A DNA stretch of 64,000 nucleotides from Alloiococcus sp. Lineage in GTDB: Bacteria; Bacillota; Bacilli; Lactobacillales; Carnobacteriaceae_A. Both the position numbers and the translations under genes were made by a program. Positions 36,383-49,175 of this stretch are shown piece by piece (position 1 is the stretch's first letter; every line of letters starts with the position of its first letter). The notes under the pieces were generated by a model, which was not told where the DNA came from, did no database searches, and was given only the letters and a program-made list of their open reading frames with translations. Where the stretch lies: positions 54,053 through 118,052 of the forward strand of contig DATGUS010000072.1 in assembly GCA_035301245.1 (NCBI GenBank), read 5' to 3'.

Positions 36383-36961
36383 TTGAATTCAAAAGAAATG
36401 ATTGAAATTTTTTTGTTTGTTAATCCGTTAGACAAAAATTGTCTAGAAGTGGCAAGATCTGTTTGTCGTTTCCCTAAAAATCGCTCTGAAAAAGTAAATA
36501 TTCGATTAATTACTTACAAGTTGAATAATAGCACGAAAACGACCTTTCAATCTTTTAAAAATACTGCTGTCTTTAATGCTGAATATTTAAGTTGTTTATC
36601 TTTTCAAGCGGCTTCTATGCAAGGTAAGAAAAAAGGAAATCAGTATTTTATAAATCTTCAATCATTGTTATTTGAAAAAAACTATGAATTTAGCGAAAAA
36701 ACAATAATTAAAGCAGCTAAAGAAGCAAATATTGATTTAGAAATTTTTAAAGAAGATTTGTACTCCAACTTGGCAAAAAACTCTTGTCAACGAGATAAGC
36801 AACTAGCCAAAGAGATGGAAGTTAGAACAGTTCCAACATGTATCATCTACTATCACAATCATTCTATGAATAAAACTCGGGTAGAAGATACTATCAGTGA
36901 CTACACACTCCATTATGTGTGTAATACTTGTCACAGTCTCAAAGCTATTGATACAAATTGA
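36383..36961 (+). CDS. yjbH: YjbH/SpxH-like DsbA-family adaptor (short form)
   Basis: EIFLFVNP, AASMQGKKKG, LAKEMEV..VPT; position next to yjbK and pepF. Confidence 0.75.
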   Translation: MNSKEMIEIFLFVNPLDKNCLEVARSVCRFPKNRSEKVNIRLITYKLNNSTKTTFQSFKNTAVFNAEYLSCLSFQAASMQGKKKGNQYFINLQSLLFEKNYEFSEKTIIKAAKEANIDLEIFKEDLYSNLAKNSCQRDKQLAKEMEVRTVPTCIIYYHNHSMNKTRVEDTISDYTLHYVCNTCHSLKAIDTN

Positions 36962-39049: not shown

Positions 39050-40246
39050 TTAATTTTTCTCAGAATATGAAAACTTCAAACGCTCCATTGTTCGATCGTA
39101 AGAATCCTTCATGCGAATGCGAGTATCTTCTGAAAAATCTGATACATTAGAGTCTGCTGCCGGTAGTATAGTATATTCATATCTTCCGCCTTCAATGGCA
39201 TTTCTTTGAACCCATGTTGGTGTAAAAGAAACATGAGTTAATTCAACGGAATCTGTATCTTTCAGTCTTTCAAAGTCTAAGTGAACAATCACACCATCCT
39301 CAGTCGGTCTAAATGCTTCTCCTAAACTTTCAAAGCGTTGATTAGATAAGAAATTACCAACTGAATAAATTATAAACATCTCATGATCCTCATATGTAAT
39401 CATTTCAGCTTCTTGAATGACATGAGGGTGTGAGCCGATGACTGCGTCCACGCCTAATTCCGCAAATACTTGAGCAAAATGCTTTTGTTCTTCTGATAAT
39501 TCTGAAGTATATTCTTCTCCCCAGTGAGCATAAGCTAAAATAATATCTGGATCAGTCTCTTTCACTGCATTAATTTCTTTTTCAATGATTTCTTCTTCCA
39601 ACAAGTTGATATGTTGGTACATCTCTTCATTAGTAAACCAATTTGTTTCTTGACCATTAACAAAGGAAGTGAAAGCAACTATCGCTACGTCAATACCATT
39701 GATTGTTTCAGTATAAAAACGTTCTGAATCATCATCAATAGATGTTCCAATAGCCGGTAAGCCTTGTTTTTCAATCCACTGAACCGTCTGAACAGCTCCT
39801 TTCACTAAGTTGTCCATACTATGATTATTTGCTGTAACAATCCCATTAAAACCAGCATAATCAAGGCCTTCAATTAATTCTTTTGGAGTGACGAATGATG
39901 GATAACCACTATACTCACTAGATTCAGCACTTAAAGTAGTTTCTAAATTAACAAGGTTTAAATCTGACTCATCAAAAATAGGTTTGACATAATCAAACAT
40001 TTGGTCAAAATTGTATTCTTCTGTTTGATTTGGATCGGCTGCTTTATATATACCGGAATGACCAATGACATCACCCACGGCCGAAACACGAAGCTGTTCA
40101 ACCCCTTCTTCCACCATTTCTTGAGTAGCTTCATTATGACCATTAGATAACTCTTCATTTCCAGTCGGGGCTTCTTCTAGACTACAACCTACTAGAGCAA
40201 TTGAAGCTGTTACTAATATTAAATGCTTCTTTAATAATGACTTCAT
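39050..40246 (-). CDS. CapA/PgsA-family metallophosphoesterase-fold lipoprotein
   Basis: Lipobox LVGC; VGD, NLE, ANNHSMD, HWGEEY, GSHPHV, YSVGNF motifs. Confidence 0.88.
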   Translation of the reverse strand: MKSLLKKHLILVTASIALVGCSLEEAPTGNEELSNGHNEATQEMVEEGVEQLRVSAVGDVIGHSGIYKAADPNQTEEYNFDQMFDYVKPIFDESDLNLVNLETTLSAESSEYSGYPSFVTPKELIEGLDYAGFNGIVTANNHSMDNLVKGAVQTVQWIEKQGLPAIGTSIDDDSERFYTETINGIDVAIVAFTSFVNGQETNWFTNEEMYQHINLLEEEIIEKEINAVKETDPDIILAYAHWGEEYTSELSEEQKHFAQVFAELGVDAVIGSHPHVIQEAEMITYEDHEMFIIYSVGNFLSNQRFESLGEAFRPTEDGVIVHLDFERLKDTDSVELTHVSFTPTWVQRNAIEGGRYEYTILPAADSNVSDFSEDTRIRMKDSYDRTMERLKFSYSEKN

Positions 40247-41001
40247 TCATCTAACTCCTCTTGATTATTTAAAAACTCTTCATAAGTGAGGTTGTTTTCA
40301 TATAAATATGTCGCCAATTCTTCACCAAAATAACGATAGTGCCATGGCTCGTATTGATAACCTGTGATGTCTTCTTTTCCTTCAGGATAGCGCATTACAA
40401 AACCAAATTGATGAGCATTCTGAGATAGCCATTTACCTTCGGGTACATTAATAAACTCTTCTGTCAGCTCATTGTTCACGCTCTCGGCAGTGATATCCAT
40501 TGCTAAACCGGTCTGGTGTTCACTAGTTCCTGGACGAGCACTAAAACGGTCTGCTGTCTCTTGATCATGCGTACTAACATAATTCGAATAAAGATTTTCT
40601 TGCGTTAAGTAAGAACGATACCCTGACCTTGCCTTTAATTCCATACCTTCAGATAGTGCTGCTTCAAACATGTTGGATAACTGCTCTGAAGCTTCTTGTC
40701 TTAATTGTCTAACTTCTGGATTTTCGATAACGTACGATACATCGATCGTTACGAGATCACTTGGAATATAATTTTTATCTAAAGCATGATTTTTATTAGT
40801 TAATACAGTTAATGAATTTGATTCATTTGGATTAACTTCTATATTATTTGCTTTATTCTGATTCTCTACTGATGAGCAGTCATCAGTATTTTGAACAGTT
40901 TCTTTATTTTCTAATTGATTATTTAATTGTTCTTCTTTTGGAGATCCACACGCATATAGAGACATGGTGGCTCCTAATATAAATAAATATTTTGTAAACA
41001 T
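40243..41001 (-). CDS. M15B (VanY/LdcB) zinc carboxypeptidase lipoprotein
   Basis: Lipobox LYAC; SGYRSY, SEHQTGLAMD, EPWHYRY; ATG at 41001 is 9 nt after GGAG. Confidence 0.88.
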   Translation of the reverse strand: MFTKYLFILGATMSLYACGSPKEEQLNNQLENKETVQNTDDCSSVENQNKANNIEVNPNESNSLTVLTNKNHALDKNYIPSDLVTIDVSYVIENPEVRQLRQEASEQLSNMFEAALSEGMELKARSGYRSYLTQENLYSNYVSTHDQETADRFSARPGTSEHQTGLAMDITAESVNNELTEEFINVPEGKWLSQNAHQFGFVMRYPEGKEDITGYQYEPWHYRYFGEELATYLYENNLTYEEFLNNQEELDE

Positions 41002-41061
41002 CTGAATCATCTCCACTATACTATTAAACCATTAAATCCAGCAGATTAAAACCGCTTTTCA

Positions 41062-42120
41062 TCAACATCTACACCACTTATCATCATTAACTCGAAAAAG
41101 TACCCCTTCTGACTCCAATAAATCCATAAAATCTGAAAAACATCTCATTCGGTATTGAGCGTCAACATTGGGCATAATATAAAGTTTTATACGACCAGAC
41201 CCAATCTGTTTTTTTAACCATAATCGAACTGTATCTTTAGAAATGATAGTGTCCTGTTCAAAGTTATTGATCCAATGATACAAATCATATTTCCATGCAT
41301 AGCCAGGCGTCATCACCGTCCATTCACCTTCACATGGTAAGAATATCATTGAAGGTAGAGTAAACAAATTATCCCCTTGATTATACATTTTATTAAAAAA
41401 GCACCGAGCATTCTTAGTCTTAAAATACTGCATTCTTCTTAATTCTTTAAATGCCTTTTGCGTAATGATTTGTTGATCAACGAGTTGAATGTTGTAAGGT
41501 TCCGGAAGGTCTTTCATTGTAACGAAACGCGTGAGATATGATGTGGACCACTTTAATCTGTCAAGGTAGTGAAAATGATGATGAATAATTAACTGCTTAT
41601 TAATTATATCTAAATATAGTAAATTGGGAGTCGTTAAAACATATTGATTCATCATTGCACGATGAAGCTGAGTAAGTCGTGTGTTTAAGATTAAAGGTGA
41701 TCCAATAATCCACAATACAATGATATCTGCTTTTTTGTACCCTTTAGATCTTTTCAGAACATCTTTTACAGAAATTGAACTACATTGAAACTCAATCGCT
41801 ATTTTTTGCTTATTTTTCGTGATTAGCAAATCTGGCCGTTGTTTCAATGTCTTGATATAAGGTTCCATTTCAATCGATTCCACATGGGGCTTTAAAAAGT
41901 GATATAAGAAATATTTGCCCCTTATATGCTCTTCGGTCTCACCTTCAGAAAAAGATTGACATTCACTATTTTTGTAGTGAGAAAAATGAGGCATATTTTT
42001 AGTGCCTTGTTTTAAAAAGACTTTTTCTTTACAACTTGGACAAAAGTAGCAATTTTCTGAATTCTTTTTTTCTAGTGAAGCATTTTTCAATTGATTATAT
42101 TGATCATAAGCAATTAACAT
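41062..42120 (-). CDS. coiA: Competence protein CoiA
   Basis: CPSC...HFSH...ETEEH, RPDL, IEFQCS; mecA-coiA-pepF synteny. Confidence 0.9.
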   Translation of the reverse strand: MLIAYDQYNQLKNASLEKKNSENCYFCPSCKEKVFLKQGTKNMPHFSHYKNSECQSFSEGETEEHIRGKYFLYHFLKPHVESIEMEPYIKTLKQRPDLLITKNKQKIAIEFQCSSISVKDVLKRSKGYKKADIIVLWIIGSPLILNTRLTQLHRAMMNQYVLTTPNLLYLDIINKQLIIHHHFHYLDRLKWSTSYLTRFVTMKDLPEPYNIQLVDQQIITQKAFKELRRMQYFKTKNARCFFNKMYNQGDNLFTLPSMIFLPCEGEWTVMTPGYAWKYDLYHWINNFEQDTIISKDTVRLWLKKQIGSGRIKLYIMPNVDAQYRMRCFSDFMDLLESEGVLFRVNDDKWCRC

Positions 42121-42139
42121 GAGTATCCCTCCCCTACAG

Positions 42140-42147
42140 TATACGAA
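42140..42147 (-). promoter_or_regulatory. Candidate ComX-type promoter box TTCGTATA
   Basis: Motif lies about 20 nt upstream of the coiA start. Confidence 0.4.
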
Positions 42148-42185
42148 TTAATTGTTTTACATTATTTATTTTTAAAAATAAATAT

Positions 42186-42219
42186 AAAAAAGAACTCAGC
42201 TCTCACCAAGTTCTTTTTT
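42186..42219 (-). terminator. mecA terminator
   Basis: AAAAAGAACT...AGTTCTTTTT. Confidence 0.55.
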
Positions 42220-42230
42220 ATAGTCTTCAA

Positions 42231-42923
42231 TTAAAAATGTGTTTTTAAAATACCTAAAGCATTCTCTTCAATAATGACATCGGCATGTTCCTCAAGCACA
42301 TCGACTGATACCGGACTCTCTTCTCCATATTCTTTTACTTTCGCAAATAATAATTTACGATATACTTCAGTGGTACGATATAAGTCTTCAAATTCAAGAT
42401 ATAGATAATAGATTGAATTCTGATGGTATAATACTGAATCAATAAATTCATCATCTAAATCAGTAACTAAAATTAAGAGTTTTTCAATATTATCGAATGC
42501 AACAATCATTGATGATGTTTTCTCATTATGATTATCATCCAGATTTGAATCATCTTCCAATTGACCAAGAATATCATTTATCACTTTTGAATCCTCTGAA
42601 TCCTCGCCTTTAGATTTTTTCTTTTCGTTTGATGATAGTTGTTTTGATTCACGAGCAATTGAATTAATGATATCTTCATCAACATTTGCCCCTTTACTAA
42701 TAAATAATTCCAACCCGTTATTTTTTGGCATTACTTGGAACGTGACTGCATCAGAATCTTTAAAGTCATCATTCAAATCGACTTCTTCTAAAATACCATA
42801 AAAAAAACTTTCAATTTGTTTTTCATTTCCTAATAAATCCAAAAATGTTATTCCGCGATTCATGAGATCCGAGTTATCAATAGTGACACGTATAGTATCA
42901 TCATTAATGTGTTCAATTTCCAT
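42231..42923 (-). CDS. mecA: Adaptor protein MecA
   Basis: MEIEHINDDTIRV, FFYGILEEV, VTFQV, EYG...LEEH. Confidence 0.93.
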   Translation of the reverse strand: MEIEHINDDTIRVTIDNSDLMNRGITFLDLLGNEKQIESFFYGILEEVDLNDDFKDSDAVTFQVMPKNNGLELFISKGANVDEDIINSIARESKQLSSNEKKKSKGEDSEDSKVINDILGQLEDDSNLDDNHNEKTSSMIVAFDNIEKLLILVTDLDDEFIDSVLYHQNSIYYLYLEFEDLYRTTEVYRKLLFAKVKEYGEESPVSVDVLEEHADVIIEENALGILKTHF

Positions 42924-42987
42924 AGCTCAATCACCTCATTCACTATTTTAAAACTATGGTAGATTAACCAATTAAACCTTATTATAC

Positions 42988-43023
42988 AAAAAAAGGTGTC
43001 ACTATTCAATAGCGACACTCTTT
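42988..43023 (-). terminator. Terminator after the spx-like gene
   Basis: GTGTCACTAT/ATAGCGACAC stem with a T-run on the minus strand. Confidence 0.6.
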
Positions 43024-43025
43024 GA

Positions 43026-43400
43026 CTAATATTCCATAATAACACGGGTAGGTTTAGGCAAAAATTTATTAAGTTCTTCTTCGTTATAGCCTACAAGCAT
43101 TCGTTTATCATCATACAATATAGGCAGTTTCAATAATTTGGGTTCTCTCTCCATTGATTCATAAAGTTCTTTAAGTGAGATATCATTATCTTCAATGACA
43201 TGCTGCACCATTGAAAGGTATTCTGGCGCAATGATATCAATTACACCCATCTCAGTTAATGATGTCATTTGCTTTAACTCTTCCATGGTCACCAAATCAT
43301 CAAATAATTCCTTTTCTTGATATGGTATGCAACGTTTGTCTAACCATTGTTTTACCTTTTTACAATCAATCGAACTTGGATACGTAAATAACTTAAGCAT
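43026..43400 (-). CDS. spx: Spx-family (ArsC fold) RNA polymerase-binding regulator, degenerate redox motif
   Basis: Colinear with Spx (G52, LLxxPI, VGYNEEE..FLP); canonical position upstream of mecA; SxxC instead of CxxC. Confidence 0.8.
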   Translation of the reverse strand: MLKLFTYPSSIDCKKVKQWLDKRCIPYQEKELFDDLVTMEELKQMTSLTEMGVIDIIAPEYLSMVQHVIEDNDISLKELYESMEREPKLLKLPILYDDKRMLVGYNEEELNKFLPKPTRVIMEY

Positions 43401-43436
43401 ATCTATCCCCCATAATTTTTATTTTTAGATAGCGGC

Positions 43437-44456
43437 TTAATAAATTAATTCTACCAATTCATCAACATCGACATCACCAAAGTATTTATTAATATCAACA
43501 GATTCTAATACTTTATGGATTGATTTCGCTTCATAATTAGTACCTTTTAATTTATCTTCTACATCTGAGATTTCTCCCATACCGAAGAAATCACCATAAA
43601 TTTTAATATCTTTAATAACACCTTTATCGACATTTAACTTCACTTCTACTGTACCAATTGATAAACGTTCACTACGTTCTAAATCAAAGTCTGGAGACTC
43701 ACCGTAGTTCCAGTTCCAGTTTGCTGTATATTTTTCAGCAAACTTATCAATCTCTTCCCAGTCTTGATCAGTTAATTTATATTCTTTCACTTCAGAAATA
43801 TCGTCAACATCATAAATATTTAATAATAATTTTTCTCTAAAATTTTTCGTATTCATATTTTGATATTCGTCATTTAAATATGGTTTAATATTTGTTACGC
43901 GACTACGAATTGATTTAATACCTTTAGATTTTAATTTATGTTTCTTAGGTTTTAACGCACCAACTACGGCATCGATTTGTGAGTTAAACATTAACGTTCC
44001 ATGAGCTGTCATTCGTCCATTCTTAGAGTACATGGCATTTCCTGAGAATTTTTTGTCATCAATAATTAAATCATTACGGCCGCGTAATTCTGCACCAGAA
44101 GCACCCATTTTTTGAAGTGCATCAATTACCGGTAAGGTAAAACGCTTGAAGTTTCTAAATGAATCACCATCATCTTTTGTTATGAAACAGAAGTTAAGTA
44201 CGCCTAAATCATGATACACTGCTCCACCACCACTGAAGCGACGGACCACTTTTACATCATTGTCTTCAACATACTGAGTATTTACTTCTTCATAAGTATT
44301 TTGGTTTTTACCTACAATAATTGAATCGTTATTGATGTAGAAAAGTAAAATAGGTTCATCAAGCTGAACATTATTTAATAAGTAGTACTCTATAGCCAAG
44401 TTAATACTTGGATCATGAATTTCTTCGCCATTTCTTTCATTCTTTACGTAATACAT
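43437..44456 (-). CDS. lplA: Lipoate--protein ligase
   Basis: RRFSGGGAVYHD, GRNDL, KFSGNA, HGTL. Confidence 0.93.
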   Translation of the reverse strand: MYYVKNERNGEEIHDPSINLAIEYYLLNNVQLDEPILLFYINNDSIIVGKNQNTYEEVNTQYVEDNDVKVVRRFSGGGAVYHDLGVLNFCFITKDDGDSFRNFKRFTLPVIDALQKMGASGAELRGRNDLIIDDKKFSGNAMYSKNGRMTAHGTLMFNSQIDAVVGALKPKKHKLKSKGIKSIRSRVTNIKPYLNDEYQNMNTKNFREKLLLNIYDVDDISEVKEYKLTDQDWEEIDKFAEKYTANWNWNYGESPDFDLERSERLSIGTVEVKLNVDKGVIKDIKIYGDFFGMGEISDVEDKLKGTNYEAKSIHKVLESVDINKYFGDVDVDELVELIY

Positions 44457-44654
44457 ATCGTACTTCCTTTCATTTTCGTTCTCGTATGTATAGTTTAAGA
44501 TACAATTTAAGAAAAATACACTGAATTTTGAAATTTTATTAAAAATATTAGATTTATTATATCTATCGAGTATTATTTCATACTTTTAAAAACAAAATTG
44601 TTTTTATTTAAGCATAAATTTTATAATAAATTTCTACACAGTCATTTAAGCCAT

Positions 44655-44689
44655 AAAAAAAGACTGACTTTGACATGTCAGTCTTTTTT
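44655..44689 (-). terminator. rplT terminator
   Basis: AAAAAAGACTGAC...GTCAGTCTTTTTT. Confidence 0.85.
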
Positions 44690-44695
44690 ATCATC

Positions 44696-45058
44696 TTATT
44701 GATTAGAAATAGCTTCTTTCGCTTGTTCTGTTAATGATGCGAATGCCTCTGCATCGTTAACTGCTAATTCTGCTAATACTTTACGGTTTAAGTCAATACC
44801 TGCTAATTTTAGTCCGTGCATGAATTTTGAGTAGCTTAAGCCGTTTAAGCGAGCTGCCGCATTGATACGTGAGATCCATAATTTACGGAAATTACGTTTA
44901 TTCTGTTTACGGTCACGGTAAGCATACATGTAAGATTTCATAACCTGCTGTTTAGCAACTCTAAATAATTTGTGTTTTGCTCCGTAGTAACCTTTAGCTA
45001 ATTTTAAAACACGTTTACGACGACGTAAAGTGACTGTTCCACCTTTTACTCTTGCCAT
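44696..45058 (-). CDS. rplT: 50S ribosomal protein L20
   Basis: MARVKGG...YAYRDR...LWISRINAA. Confidence 0.99.
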
Positions 45059-45081
45059 TTTTAATTTCCTCCTCTAACTAA

Positions 45082-45282
45082 TTATTTCATGTAAGTTAAT
45101 TGTTGGTTAATACGTTTTTGGTCTGATTTATGAACCATTCCAGCTTTACGTAATTGACGTTTTTGTTTTTGAGTCTTATTCGCAAATAAGTGACTTCTTT
45201 TTGCGTGGCTACGTTTTAATTTTCCAGAAGCAGTACGTTTGAAACGTTTTTGACTTCCTTTATGAGTTTTCATTTTTGGCAT
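45082..45282 (-). CDS. rpmI: 50S ribosomal protein L35
   Basis: MPKMKTH...[10 protein letters not shown]. Confidence 0.99.
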
Positions 45283-45312
45283 AGTTAAATCCTCCTGTAT
45301 TAATTGAAATTT

Positions 45313-45828
45313 TTATTTTTCGCTTTTCGGCGCAATCATTAAGAACATTGAACGACCATCCATTTTTGGTTTTTGCTCAATATCGCCGATATCTTTGGTT
45401 TCTTCAGCAAAACGCTCTAAAACTTCACGACCGATATCTTTATGAGTAATAGCACGACCACGGAAACGAATAGAAACCTTTACTTTGTCACCATCTTTTT
45501 CTAAGAATTTTCGACCTTGTTTTAGCTTAGTATTAAAATCATGATCATCAATAGTTGGGCTTAAACGTATCTCTTTAACATCAATTGTCTTTTGATTCTT
45601 ACGTTGTTCACGTTCACGTTTTTGTTGCTCATAACGGTATTTACCGTAATCCATAATACGGGCAACGGATGGGTTAGCGTTAGGTGACACTAATACTAAG
45701 TCCAGTTCAACACGTGCAGCTGCTTCTAAAGCTTGTTCTCGTGAAACAACTCCGATTTGCTCTCCATCATGTCCGATTAATCGTAACTCTTTATCGCGAA
45801 TACGATCGTTAACTATCATTTCCTTTAT
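45313..45828 (-). CDS. infC: Translation initiation factor IF-3, non-AUG start (ATA at 45828 or ATC at 45831)
   Basis: [20 protein letters not shown]; GGAGG at 45838-45842 followed by ATC ATC ATA. Confidence 0.95.
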
Positions 45829-45851
45829 GATGATACACCTCCGAAAATATT

Positions 45852-46012
45852 TGAAAAAAACAAAGAACGGAACTCCGTTAATACACAAAGTCCCGTTCAG
45901 TTAAATGATCTGAGTTAACCTACACCTACTTGAGGCATAGTCATTCATTAAATACTGATATTAGCCCATGAACTGTATCCATAAGGCGAGAAGTGGGACT
46001 TCTACTTTGTTT
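45852..46012 (-). ncRNA. L20 leader (infC-rpmI-rplT attenuator)
   Basis: AGTAGAAGTCCCACTTCTCGCC 5' hairpin and GAACGGGACTT...AGTTCCGTTC terminator with U-tract; TTGACA(46050-46055)-17-TATTCT promoter upstream. Confidence 0.85.
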
Positions 46013-46120
46013 TCTCAACATTTAATAGAATAACATTATAATCTTATCATGTCAACTGAATTTAAAAATAAATACATTTCATGGGGTAAAGATCATATGG
46101 TGGTAACTAAATGATATATA

Positions 46121-48067
46121 TTAATTATTTTCTCTACTTTTTGATTTAATATCTTCAATTAATAAATCAATAAATGTATCTAAGTCCATTGTATTGGTAT
46201 CTCTTTCGCCGTATTTACGAACAGAAACGGTTTTATTTTCCGCTTCATTATCACCGATTACAATTTGATATGGAATTTTTTGTGTCTGAGATTGACGAAT
46301 CTTGTATCCTAATTTTTCATTACGGTCATCAACTTCGACACGTACATTGTTCATTCTTAATTTTGCTGCCAGATCTTCAACAACATCTAAGTGTGCATCC
46401 AAGCTTACGGGTATCAGTACCGTTTGTATTGGCGCTAACCATGTTGGAAAAGCACCTTTGTACTCTTCAATCAAGTATGCCACGAAACGTTCCATTGTCG
46501 ATACCACACCACGGTGGATGACAACTGGACGGTGGTTATCTTGACCATCTTCACCGACATAAGTTAAGTCGAAACGTTCTGGTAGCAAGAAGTCAAGTTG
46601 TACTGTTGATAGTGTTTCCTCTAATCCGATTGCTGTTTTTACTTGAACGTCTAACTTAGGCCCGTAGAATGCGGCTTCTCCGATTGCTTCAAAGTATTCA
46701 ATACCCGCTTCATCTAGCGTTTCACGAAGCATATCTTCTGCTTTAATCCACATCTCATCATCATCGAAGTATTTCTCTTTGTTTTCTGGGTCTCTTAGAC
46801 TTAGACGGAAACGGTAATCCGTGATGTTAAAGTCTTCATACACTTCAACAACTAAATCTACCACTCGTTTAAACTCTTCTTTAATTTGGTCAGGTCTTAC
46901 AAAAACATGTGCATCGTTTAATGTCATCTCACGAACCCGTTGTAAACCTGATAGAGCTCCGGATTTTTCATAACGGTGCATCTGACCTAATTCAGCAATA
47001 CGAATTGGTAGTTCGCGGTAACTATGTGTATCGTTTTTGTACACTTCCATATGATGTGGACAGTTCATTGGACGTAAGACAAGCATTTCACCGTCCCCCA
47101 TATCCATTGGTGGGAACATGTCATCTTGGTAGTGATCCCAGTGGCCTGATATTTTGTATAATTTTGAATCTGCCATAATTGGTGTATACACGTGTTGGTA
47201 GCCTAAGCTAATTTCTTTATCAGTAATATAACGCTCGATAATACGACGGATTGTCGCTCCTTTTGGTAACCAAAAAGGCAGACCTGAACCCACAGTTGAA
47301 GATAGTGTAAAGAGATCTAATTCTTTGCCTAACTTACGATGGTCACGCTCTTTAGCTTCTTCTCTTAGACGTAAGAATTCATCTAAATCAGCTTGTTTGA
47401 AGAACGCTGTACCGTACACTCGTTGCATCATTTTATTGTCTGAATTTCCACGCCAGTATGCTCCAGCAAGTGATAATAATTTAAAGACTTTAATGTGTTT
47501 AGTTGAGGGAACGTGAATACCTCGGCATAAATCTACAAATTCACCTTGCTCATACAAAGAAATAACTTCGTCTTCAGGTAAGTCATTAATCAATTCTATC
47601 TTATATGGATCATTTTTAAAAAGCTTTAATGCCTCATCTCTCGGCACTTCTTTACGGATAATCGGTAAGTTTTCACTTACGATTTTTTTCATTTCTTTTT
47701 CGATACGCTCTAAATCTGCCTCAACTATCGGTTCTGCTGAATCAGTATCATAGTAGAAACCTGTATCAATCGCTGGCCCTACTCCGAATTTTACATCCGG
47801 GTATAAACGAGTAATCGCTTGAGCCATTAAGTGAGCAGTTGAGTGTCTTAAAATCTGGAGTGCATCTTCATGTTTATCTGTTACGATTTCTAACGTACCA
47901 TCTTCTTCAAGCGGTCTAACGTAGTCAACTAACTCCCCATTGAATTTTCCTGCAAGGCCTGCTTTTTCTAGTGATTTTGCGATCGATGCTGCAACATCTT
48001 TTGTTGTAGAGCCCTTTTTCATTTCTTTAACTGTACCGTCTGGTAATGTAATATTGATTACTGACAT
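46121..48067 (-). CDS. thrS: Threonine--tRNA ligase
   Basis: TGS domain, RHSTAH, RPMNCP, AAFYGPK. Confidence 0.98.
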
Positions 48068-48087
48068 AATTAATCCTCCTTAAAATT

Positions 48088-48316
48088 AAAAAAGTCCCAT
48101 CAACTAAAACATCTGTTTAGTTAATGGGACGACAATAGCGTGGTTCCACCCAATGTTTATACAAAAAATCGTATACTCATTTGTCTTTAACGCAGACTTA
48201 CGTAAACTTTAATCAGCTTGTCTCAAAAGTGGTCATTAATACTTTGTTTAGAAAAGTCTCAGCACTCTTTTCCTCTCTTTGGAAACTTTAAAATATTAAT
48301 GGTATCTTTATCATTG
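48088..48316 (-). ncRNA. T-box riboswitch, Thr (ACC specifier)
   Basis: T-box GGGTGGAACCACG at 48139-48151; AGAGA and GCTGAGA motifs; specifier ACC at 48231-48233; GTCCCAT...ATGGGAC terminator. Confidence 0.92.
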
Positions 48317-48374
48317 ATTTAGTATATTAACTATTTACAACATAGATTACCAAATTTTTAATGATTAATCAATA

Positions 48375-49175
48375 TTAAGCTAACATTAAAGCGTCATCTT
48401 TCACCATTTCGCCACTTTTTTCTTTAAATAAATCTAATAATTTTGGAACAGTTAAATTTTTCTTTTCTTCTCCTTGAATATCAATCACTATTTGGCCATC
48501 GAACATCATAATTAAACGATTGCCATAATCGATCGCTTGTTGCATATCATGAGTTACCATTAAAGCGGTCAGATGCTTTTCTTTAATTAATTGATCAGTT
48601 AAAGACATCACCATCTCACGCGTGCTTGGATCCAAGGCTGCTGTATGTTCATCGAGAAGTAAAATTTCAGGAAGTTGCATCGTCGCCATCAGAAGTGTTA
48701 TAGCCTGACGCTGTCCACCAGATAATAATCCCATATCTGTCTTTAATCGATTCTCTAAACCTAAGTTTAATTTAGATAATTCTTGTTTATAGAGTTTACG
48801 ACGGTCAGACTTTATCGCAGTCGATAAACCGCGAGATTTACCACGACGGTCAGCAATTGCCAAGTTCTTTTCAATAGTTAAGTGACTTGCTGTCCCTTTT
48901 AGAGCATCTTGAAAAACACGACTAATATATTTTGCCCGTTTATAAGCCGGCTTTGATGTGATATCTTTACCATTTAACGTTAATGTTCCTTGTTCCACCA
49001 TTAATGTTCCAGCAATCGTATTTAAAAGCGTTGACTTGCCAGCGCCGTTCCCCCCAATTACTGTAATAAAATCACCTTGATGAATCGTTAAGTCGATGCC
49101 TTTTAGAACATGATTTTCGTTAACGGTTTTCTGACCGAAGATTTTATGAATATCTTTCATAACTAATTCTGTCAT
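48375..49175 (-). CDS. ABC transporter ATP-binding protein (TrpXYZ-like aromatic amino acid importer)
   Basis: GGNGAGKST, LSGGQRQ, LLLDEHTAALDP. Confidence 0.9.
   Translation of the reverse strand: MTELVMKDIHKIFGQKTVNENHVLKGIDLTIHQGDFITVIGGNGAGKSTLLNTIAGTLMVEQGTLTLNGKDITSKPAYKRAKYISRVFQDALKGTASHLTIEKNLAIADRRGKSRGLSTAIKSDRRKLYKQELSKLNLGLENRLKTDMGLLSGGQRQAITLLMATMQLPEILLLDEHTAALDPSTREMVMSLTDQLIKEKHLTALMVTHDMQQAIDYGNRLIMMFDGQIVIDIQGEEKKNLTVPKLLDLFKEKSGEMVKDDALMLA

Follow-up and report, generated by a model that had tools for sequence, protein, structure and literature searches.

A strongly constrained Spx variant at the mecA-linked locus of Alloiococcus and Dolosigranulum has lost the redox switch, the DNA and sigma contacts and the degradation tail of Spx

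Spx is among the most conserved stress regulators of Firmicutes, and the division between its activating and repressing (anti-alpha) modes has been argued mostly from laboratory point mutants. The gene considered here, designated spxV, lies within a 64,000-nucleotide stretch of an Alloiococcus sp. contig (the window) and encodes an Spx-like protein in which the residues behind redox control and activation are replaced. The locus therefore raises the question of what role, if any, is left to such a protein, and whether it still works through RNA polymerase, as a sequence-only reading of the window had proposed when it described a redox-blind Spx that keeps its contact to the RNA polymerase alpha subunit's C-terminal domain (alpha-CTD). 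The features on which the answer rests are collected in Table 1.

Table 1. Features of the spxV locus and associated genes (window positions unless a contig is named).
Feature	Position	Strand	Details
spxV, 124-aa Spx-fold protein	43026..43400	-	ORF, ATG start
Shine-Dalgarno-like site of spxV, GGGGGA	43406..43411	-	5 nt 5' of the ATG, read from sequence
lplA-spxV spacer	43401..43436	-	36 nt, without a terminator or room for a promoter region
lplA (lipoate-protein ligase), probably leading a bicistronic unit with spxV	43437..44456	-	TIGR00545, 445.8 bits; PF21948 and PF10437
AT-rich promoter-like site 5' of lplA	44645-44618	-	ATGACT-16-TAAAAT; strength at chance level
Intrinsic terminator 3' of rplT	44655..44689	-	stem GACTGAC/GTCAGTC, then T-run
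Terminator hairpin and T-tract directly 3' of the spxV stop	42996..43018	-	10-bp stem, 4 GC pairs, then CTTTTTTTGT
Promoter-like site, best of the region, probable mecA promoter	42981..43009	-	TTGAAT-17-TATAAT; 10/12 matches; overlaps the spxV terminator
mecA (adaptor protein MecA)	42231..42923	-	PF05389, 156.9 bits
coiA (competence protein CoiA)	41062..42120	-	PF06054, PF25164, PF25166
CapA-like lipoprotein ORF and VanY/LdcB-like peptidase ORF, between coiA and pepF	39050-41016	-	4-nt overlap
Short DsbA-like protein, candidate YjbH/SpxH-type adaptor homologue	36383..36961	+	PF13743, 110.7 bits; beside pepF, 6 kb from spxV
Canonical Spx copy B, 136 aa	G000:C69:8005-8415 (= L001:1426-1836)	-	CTSC, G52, R60, RRPI, full C-terminal helix

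Residues 1-119 of the spxV product align without gaps to the B. subtilis Spx chains 7F75_G, 1Z3E_A and 3IHQ_A (HMMER, E about 2e-23 to 4e-24) at 34-36% identity, the top match being 3IHQ_A, the C10S mutant of Spx. This alignment bears out the residue states that had been read from the sequence alone: C10 is replaced by Ser (PSSIDC), C13 and G52 are kept, R60 has become Glu and K62 Leu, R91-R92 are Lys-Leu (LLKLPI), and the tail is 7 aa shorter (124 aa vs 131 aa in B. subtilis Spx). The protein passes the cut-off of the ArsC/Spx/MgsR superfamily model PF03960 (51.9 bits, cut-off 24) and lies barely above that of TIGR01617 (77.3 bits, cut-off 75.05), and it fails the NCBIfam Spx models NF002459 (106 vs 123 bits), NF009210 (87 vs 159 bits) and NF009885 (83 vs 152 bits). 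An AlphaFold2 model built from a 50-sequence alignment reached a pLDDT of 86.6 and superposed on the Spx structures 3IHQ, 3GFK, 1Z3E, 6GHB and 7F75 with TM scores of 0.79-0.88 (Foldseek); as modelled, spxV retains the Spx-type thioredoxin-like fold. NCBI annotates the spxV proteins as 'Spx/MgsR family' or 'Regulatory protein spx'.

The same-strand gene order around spxV is thrS-infC-rpmI-rplT, lplA, spxV, mecA, coiA, and the lplA-spx-mecA-coiA synteny is common to relatives carrying a canonical Spx, confirming that the variant sits in the canonical spx-mecA-coiA slot. Most of the family's 51 sampled species genomes have two Spx genes, a copy A within lplA-spx-mecA-coiA and an unlinked copy B. 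Only four of these genomes (two Alloiococcus and two Dolosigranulum) have the variant in the mecA-linked slot, where copy A is fully canonical in all other genera sampled, and all four of them keep a canonical copy B. The window genome (1.35 Mb, 103 contigs, about 90% complete) contains three ArsC-family genes, namely spxV, a YusI-like gene beside gcvH and copy B, which scores 191 bits against NF002459; the search for a canonical CxxC paralogue that had been proposed from the sequence alone thus found one in the same genome. Copy B belongs to a well-supported family-wide clade separate from the mecA-linked copy, and in the window genome it has Gln at position 62 in place of Lys, a Cys at position 112 and an acidic C-terminus.

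In a maximum-likelihood tree, the nine variant proteins form one clade with 100/100 support, and its stem separates it from every canonical sequence by about 2.4 changes per site; the median end branch of a canonical protein is about 0.09, and canonical A proteins from across the families of the order are only 0.2-0.3 apart. The tree does not place so long a branch relative to paralogues A and B; judged by its position in the genome, spxV is orthologous to the mecA-linked Spx of the SpxA1 type. Among the copy B sequences, Alloiococcus groups with Dolosigranulum (98/92), which makes one conversion in their common ancestor the simplest history. The nearest named genome to the window spxV is Alloiococcus otitis ATCC 51267 (59% identity), followed by Dolosigranulum (51%); A. 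otitis is an ear-canal organism and Dolosigranulum pigrum a nasal commensal. Apart from A. otitis and a single contig of 99% identity, scans of genome and metagenome contigs with the clade alignment returned nothing. When 1.8 billion cluster representatives were searched exhaustively, two clusters fell below E 1e-30, both from the spxV clade, and all others were at most 40% identical. Overall, sequences outside the clade reach at most about 40-45% identity, a level also seen for the canonical copies within the family; acquisition of spxV as a horizontally transferred replacement paralogue was considered and is unsupported, since the outside-clade identity only matches that level. Literature searches found no papers on Spx in Dolosigranulum or Alloiococcus.

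What the conversion changed was followed by comparing canonical proteins, 19 of copy A and 18 of copy B, with the 9 variants at the contacts listed from the cryo-EM structure of the Spx transcription-activation complex (Spx-TAC; PMC8501982). The redox switch is gone from the entire clade, as the description of a redox-blind protein had implied: position 10 is Ser in 9/9 orthologues, C13 is present in 3/9, and five of the nine contain no cysteine at all. The only cysteines of the window protein are C13 and C24, neither of them conserved in the orthologues; the model places one at each end of helix alpha1, so that an intramolecular disulfide looks unlikely.

The DNA contacts are altered just as consistently. 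Three of the replacements, T11 to Ile, S12 to Glu or Asp and R60 to Glu, occur in every variant; position 14 is variable in place of Arg, S58 is Ala or Gly, K62 is Leu, Phe, Ser or Glu, Gln/Lys at 65 is Val or Ile, R91 is Lys, and R92 is Leu (8/9) or Asn (1/9). The RPI motif (R92-P93-I94) is thereby broken at 92, with P93 and I94 retained. Summed over 14 DNA-contact positions, the net charge is -1 to -2 in the spxV clade vs +4 to +6 in copy A and +3 to +4 in copy B (37 canonical proteins), and it is the basic residues of canonical Spx that hold the -44 promoter element. Basic residues among the canonical DNA contacts are R14, K15, R60, K62, R91 and R92. The former DNA face is conserved in a new, hydrophobic and acidic state that would suit another protein partner equally well, APEY (residues 58-61) being kept in both genera; as a group, the former DNA-contact positions show no extra conservation over the rest of the protein within the clade (p 0.36).

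Contacts to sigma-A region 4, which canonical Spx makes through R111, R116, R119 and helix alpha7, are lost as well. R111, invariant in the 37 canonical proteins, is Asn, Gln, Ser or His in all nine variants, R116, also invariant in canonical Spx, is Lys, Ser, Gly or Glu, and both arginines are gone from 9/9 together with helix alpha7. Past position 119, only 5 residues follow in the window protein and 11, mostly acidic, in Dolosigranulum; in canonical Spx, the C-terminal stretch is recognised by YjbH and ClpXP (PMC7016130; PMC8501982). The positions retained across the clade are G52 (9/9), L76, L79, P93, I94, K99, R100 and Y105. Combined, the inverted DNA-contact charge and the loss of the sigma contacts and of helix alpha7 agree with the earlier proposal that the protein is activation-incompetent, which is what every sequence criterion predicts, and the database label 'Spx' over-predicts a thiol-stress activator.

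The expression of spxV appears to have changed together with its product. The spacer behind lplA measures 36 nt and contains no terminator, exactly as first read. In the four variant genomes the corresponding lplA-to-spx spacers are 24-36 nt, and relatives whose Spx is canonical have 253-555 nt or more. Judging from these lengths, spxV has lost its own upstream regulatory region. G-rich sites resembling the GGGGGA of spxV also precede its orthologues. The infC-rpmI-rplT operon is closed off from the lplA-spxV unit by the terminator after rplT, and the hairpin 3' of spxV has a predicted energy of -18.3 kcal/mol (RNAfold). With terminators after rplT and after spxV and none between lplA and spxV, the two genes probably form one bicistronic transcript ending at that hairpin, which upholds the suggestion that spxV is co-transcribed with lplA. 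An Rfam search of window positions 40000-49000 at gathering thresholds found no RNA families, neither a T-box before thrS nor an L20 leader before infC-rpmI-rplT, elements that are usual in Bacilli.

Whether spxV can still reach RNA polymerase depends on the surface that faces alpha-CTD, for which 12 positions have been published (L46, R47, G52, T53, D54, V71, E72, M74, L76, Q77, L79 and Y80). At these positions, the spxV protein matches the canonical consensus in 5/12 cases vs 49/92 elsewhere, and within the spxV clade the interface shows no extra conservation over other positions (permutation p 0.40). Derived states in the clade include Thr for a hydrophobic residue at 46 and Asp for a hydrophobic residue at 71, and T53, invariant in 37 canonical proteins, is Ala or Val. 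The partner has stayed the same: helix 1 of alpha-CTD is identical in the RpoA proteins of A. otitis, Dolosigranulum and relatives, so that a compensating change on the RpoA side is absent. This comparison was made with the RpoA of relatives because the assembly that contains the window, about 90% complete, yielded no rpoA. The statement that the alpha-CTD contact is kept therefore holds for G52, which canonical Spx needs for alpha-CTD binding, and for a few hydrophobic positions, and does not hold for the contact as a whole. Contact of the spxV protein with alpha-CTD is possible and an anti-alpha role plausible; against them stand an interface that matches at only 5/12 positions and is not preferentially conserved, and the derived residues T46, D71 and A/V53.

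From the residues and the gene arrangement, spxV is most likely a constitutive, non-activating modulator of RNA polymerase. According to this mechanism, the mecA-linked Spx would have undergone a burst of change in the ancestor of Alloiococcus and Dolosigranulum and come under purifying selection thereafter. Its product, expressed constitutively from the lplA-spxV transcript and unable to sense thiol stress or to activate transcription, would dock on alpha-CTD through a surface formed by G52, I74, L76, L79 and Y80, where its acidic face (E12, E60) would hold alpha-CTD off DNA and activators or compete with copy B for alpha. Thiol-stress activation would be left to copy B, which probably keeps the classical Spx job. 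The narrower proposition, that spxV is a dedicated anti-alpha or competitor form, a natural equivalent of the R60E and C10S alleles made in the laboratory, could equally turn out right or wrong. It draws on the invariant E60 and the E/D at position 12, carried on an otherwise Spx-like body, and on a laboratory precedent: the R60E and K62E alleles of Spx lose activation and keep repression, and R60E Spx abolishes the alpha-CTD-DNA complex in EMSA (PMC2801614). Competition of Spx paralogues for RpoA is, likewise, an existing model (PMC5371413; PMC7476776). Read in this way, spxV appears to be an evolved separation-of-function Spx, from which the switch, the DNA and sigma contacts and the degradation tail were removed and which was then strongly constrained beside an intact paralogue; it would provide a natural test of an Spx fold able, at most, to sit on the alpha subunit.

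Known systems resemble this arrangement in part. The spxV protein shares with B. subtilis Spx (YjbD) the fold, the type of locus beside mecA-coiA and the residues G52, P93 and I94, and its S10, E60 and L62 fall on the same positions as the laboratory alleles C10S/C10A, R60E and K62E. Unlike B. subtilis Spx, it lacks the disulfide switch, helix alpha7, the ClpXP/YjbH tail and a private promoter region; R14, R91/R92, R111 and R116 are changed, as is about half of the alpha-CTD interface. Streptococcaceae and Bacillus anthracis also share the labour between two Spx copies in one genome, the SpxA1/SpxA2 pairs, and these have been proposed to compete for alpha-CTD (PMC5371413); CxxC and G52 are present in both members of such a pair, whereas spxV has lost every activation determinant. 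The B. subtilis protein MgsR (YqgZ) belongs to the same Spx/MgsR family (TIGR01617) and acts through RNA polymerase, but it has retained a CxxC switch and serves as an activator or modulator that depends on SigB.

The main rival to an RNA polymerase modulator is a neofunctionalised protein that keeps the Spx fold, has left RNA polymerase and binds another partner through the remodelled DNA face. Such a history would account for the near-invariance of I11, E12, A58-P59-E60-Y61, L62, V65 and L92, whose chemistry is unlike that of canonical Spx, and it is consistent with the missing C-terminal helix, with the long stem branch followed by constraint and with an alpha-CTD interface that is 5/12 retained and not preferentially conserved. 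Set against this are the retention of G52, L76, L79 and P93 along with the fold, the known anti-alpha phenotype of an acidic residue 60, and a gene context that is inherited rather than new and offers no candidate partner, so we regard the rival as unlikely, if a serious one. Improbable, too, is the version in which the rebuilt hydrophobic/acidic patch of a protein that is off RNA polymerase binds a new partner, for example as a non-degradable decoy for a YjbH-like/ClpXP or MecA/ClpCP system controlling the level of canonical Spx. If true, such a decoy role would make spxV a first instance of an Spx-fold protein recruited for the regulation of proteolysis and not of transcription.

In a more specific form of the decoy idea, the spxV protein escapes degradation while bound to the YjbH-like adaptor, ClpX or MecA-ClpC, as an anti-adaptor that tunes the stability of copy B or of other Clp substrates. 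The protein lacks the C-terminal part recognised by YjbH and ClpXP or has another sequence in its place (PMC7016130; PMC8501982), the promoter-less arrangement of spxV suggests constitutive expression, and both mecA and a YjbH-like gene lie close by. The latter encodes the short DsbA-like protein of Table 1, which matches the YjbH chain 6GHB_B with an E value of 6.5e-10 over residues 67-160 only and matches none of the NCBIfam models searched; PF13743 proteins of this kind are about 190-210 aa long family-wide vs a 271-aa frame in a Bacillus-like relative. The linkage of mecA and yjbH is, however, ancestral to all Spx loci, and the main YjbH-binding part of Spx is exactly what spxV lost: as YjbH binds mainly the C-terminal end, its absence may mean that binding is lost and not that it is made non-productive. 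Purely inferential as it is, this form of the idea seems very unlikely.

A redox-independent activator with altered promoter specificity is disfavoured, and we would be surprised to see it borne out. It would find company, because CxxC is lacking from many Spx-family paralogues that carry a regulator annotation, and SpxB of Lactococcus lactis, one of seven Spx paralogues in that species, activates oatA (PMC7476776). Of 139 non-self clusters matching spxV, 89 lack a full CxxC, a count that is biased by the query and by the clustering; among them are proteins with the plain annotation Spx from Lactococcus lactis, L. muris/garvieae, Limosilactobacillus and Planococcus, and none of the 89 comes closer to spxV than about 40% identity. 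Like spxV, the CxxC-less paralogues of Lactococcus, Limosilactobacillus and Planococcus are usually without R92 and keep G52. Unlike spxV, most CxxC-less paralogues are full length and keep S12, R/K14 (R14 in most of the other clusters), R/K60, R111 and R/K116, and residue 60 is acidic in just 3 of the 89 clusters, with E12 in 2. The spxV clade therefore differs exactly where activation depends on the residue, its DNA-contact charge being inverted and R111, R116 and helix alpha7 lost in 9/9. Since CxxC-less Spx-family proteins are common, the clade represents an extreme case of something known; what sets it apart is that conversion affected the mecA-linked copy, which is ancestral and elsewhere ultra-conserved, and not an extra paralogue.

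The substitution patterns, with dN/dS comparisons resting on five loci, argue that spxV is a working gene. Between two Dolosigranulum species (G002 and G012), spxV differs at 9 nucleotides, all of them synonymous (dN 0, dS 0.124), and the neighbouring mecA and coiA show dN of 0.058 and 0.136. We estimate the chance of 9/9 synonymous changes under neutrality at about 1e-5 to 1e-6, taking about a quarter of sites as synonymous. The D. pigrum protein is represented by one identical sequence on 646 contigs, and residues 1-119 contain zero indels across the nine orthologues, down to 46-51% identity. Combined, the lack of non-synonymous changes, the 646 identical contigs and the indel-free frames indicate that spxV is functional and constrained. 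At the depth of Alloiococcus and Dolosigranulum, dS is saturated and a dN/dS ratio meaningless, and dN was set against neighbouring genes only: between the window and A. otitis it is 0.34 for spxV, 0.32 for mecA, 0.136 for lplA and 0.098 for copy B, again with saturated dS, which gives spxV a rate close to that of MecA and about 3.5 times that of copy B. The possibility that the gene is decaying, which had been named as what would overturn the original proposal, thus fails on purifying selection. Although a faster rate than copy B over the same species pair and a very long stem branch are what a decaying relic, redundant beside copy B, would be expected to display, that explanation is largely refuted, and hardly credible, given the 9 synonymous and 0 non-synonymous differences, an intact, indel-free frame in every orthologue, an identical protein on 646 D. 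pigrum contigs and a confident fold prediction.

The same Dolosigranulum comparison displayed a step in synonymous divergence along the locus, dS being about 0.12-0.18 in lplA and spxV but 0.78-1.05 in mecA and coiA next to them. This jump just 3' of spxV points to a boundary of recombination there, or to a history that differs greatly from that point on.
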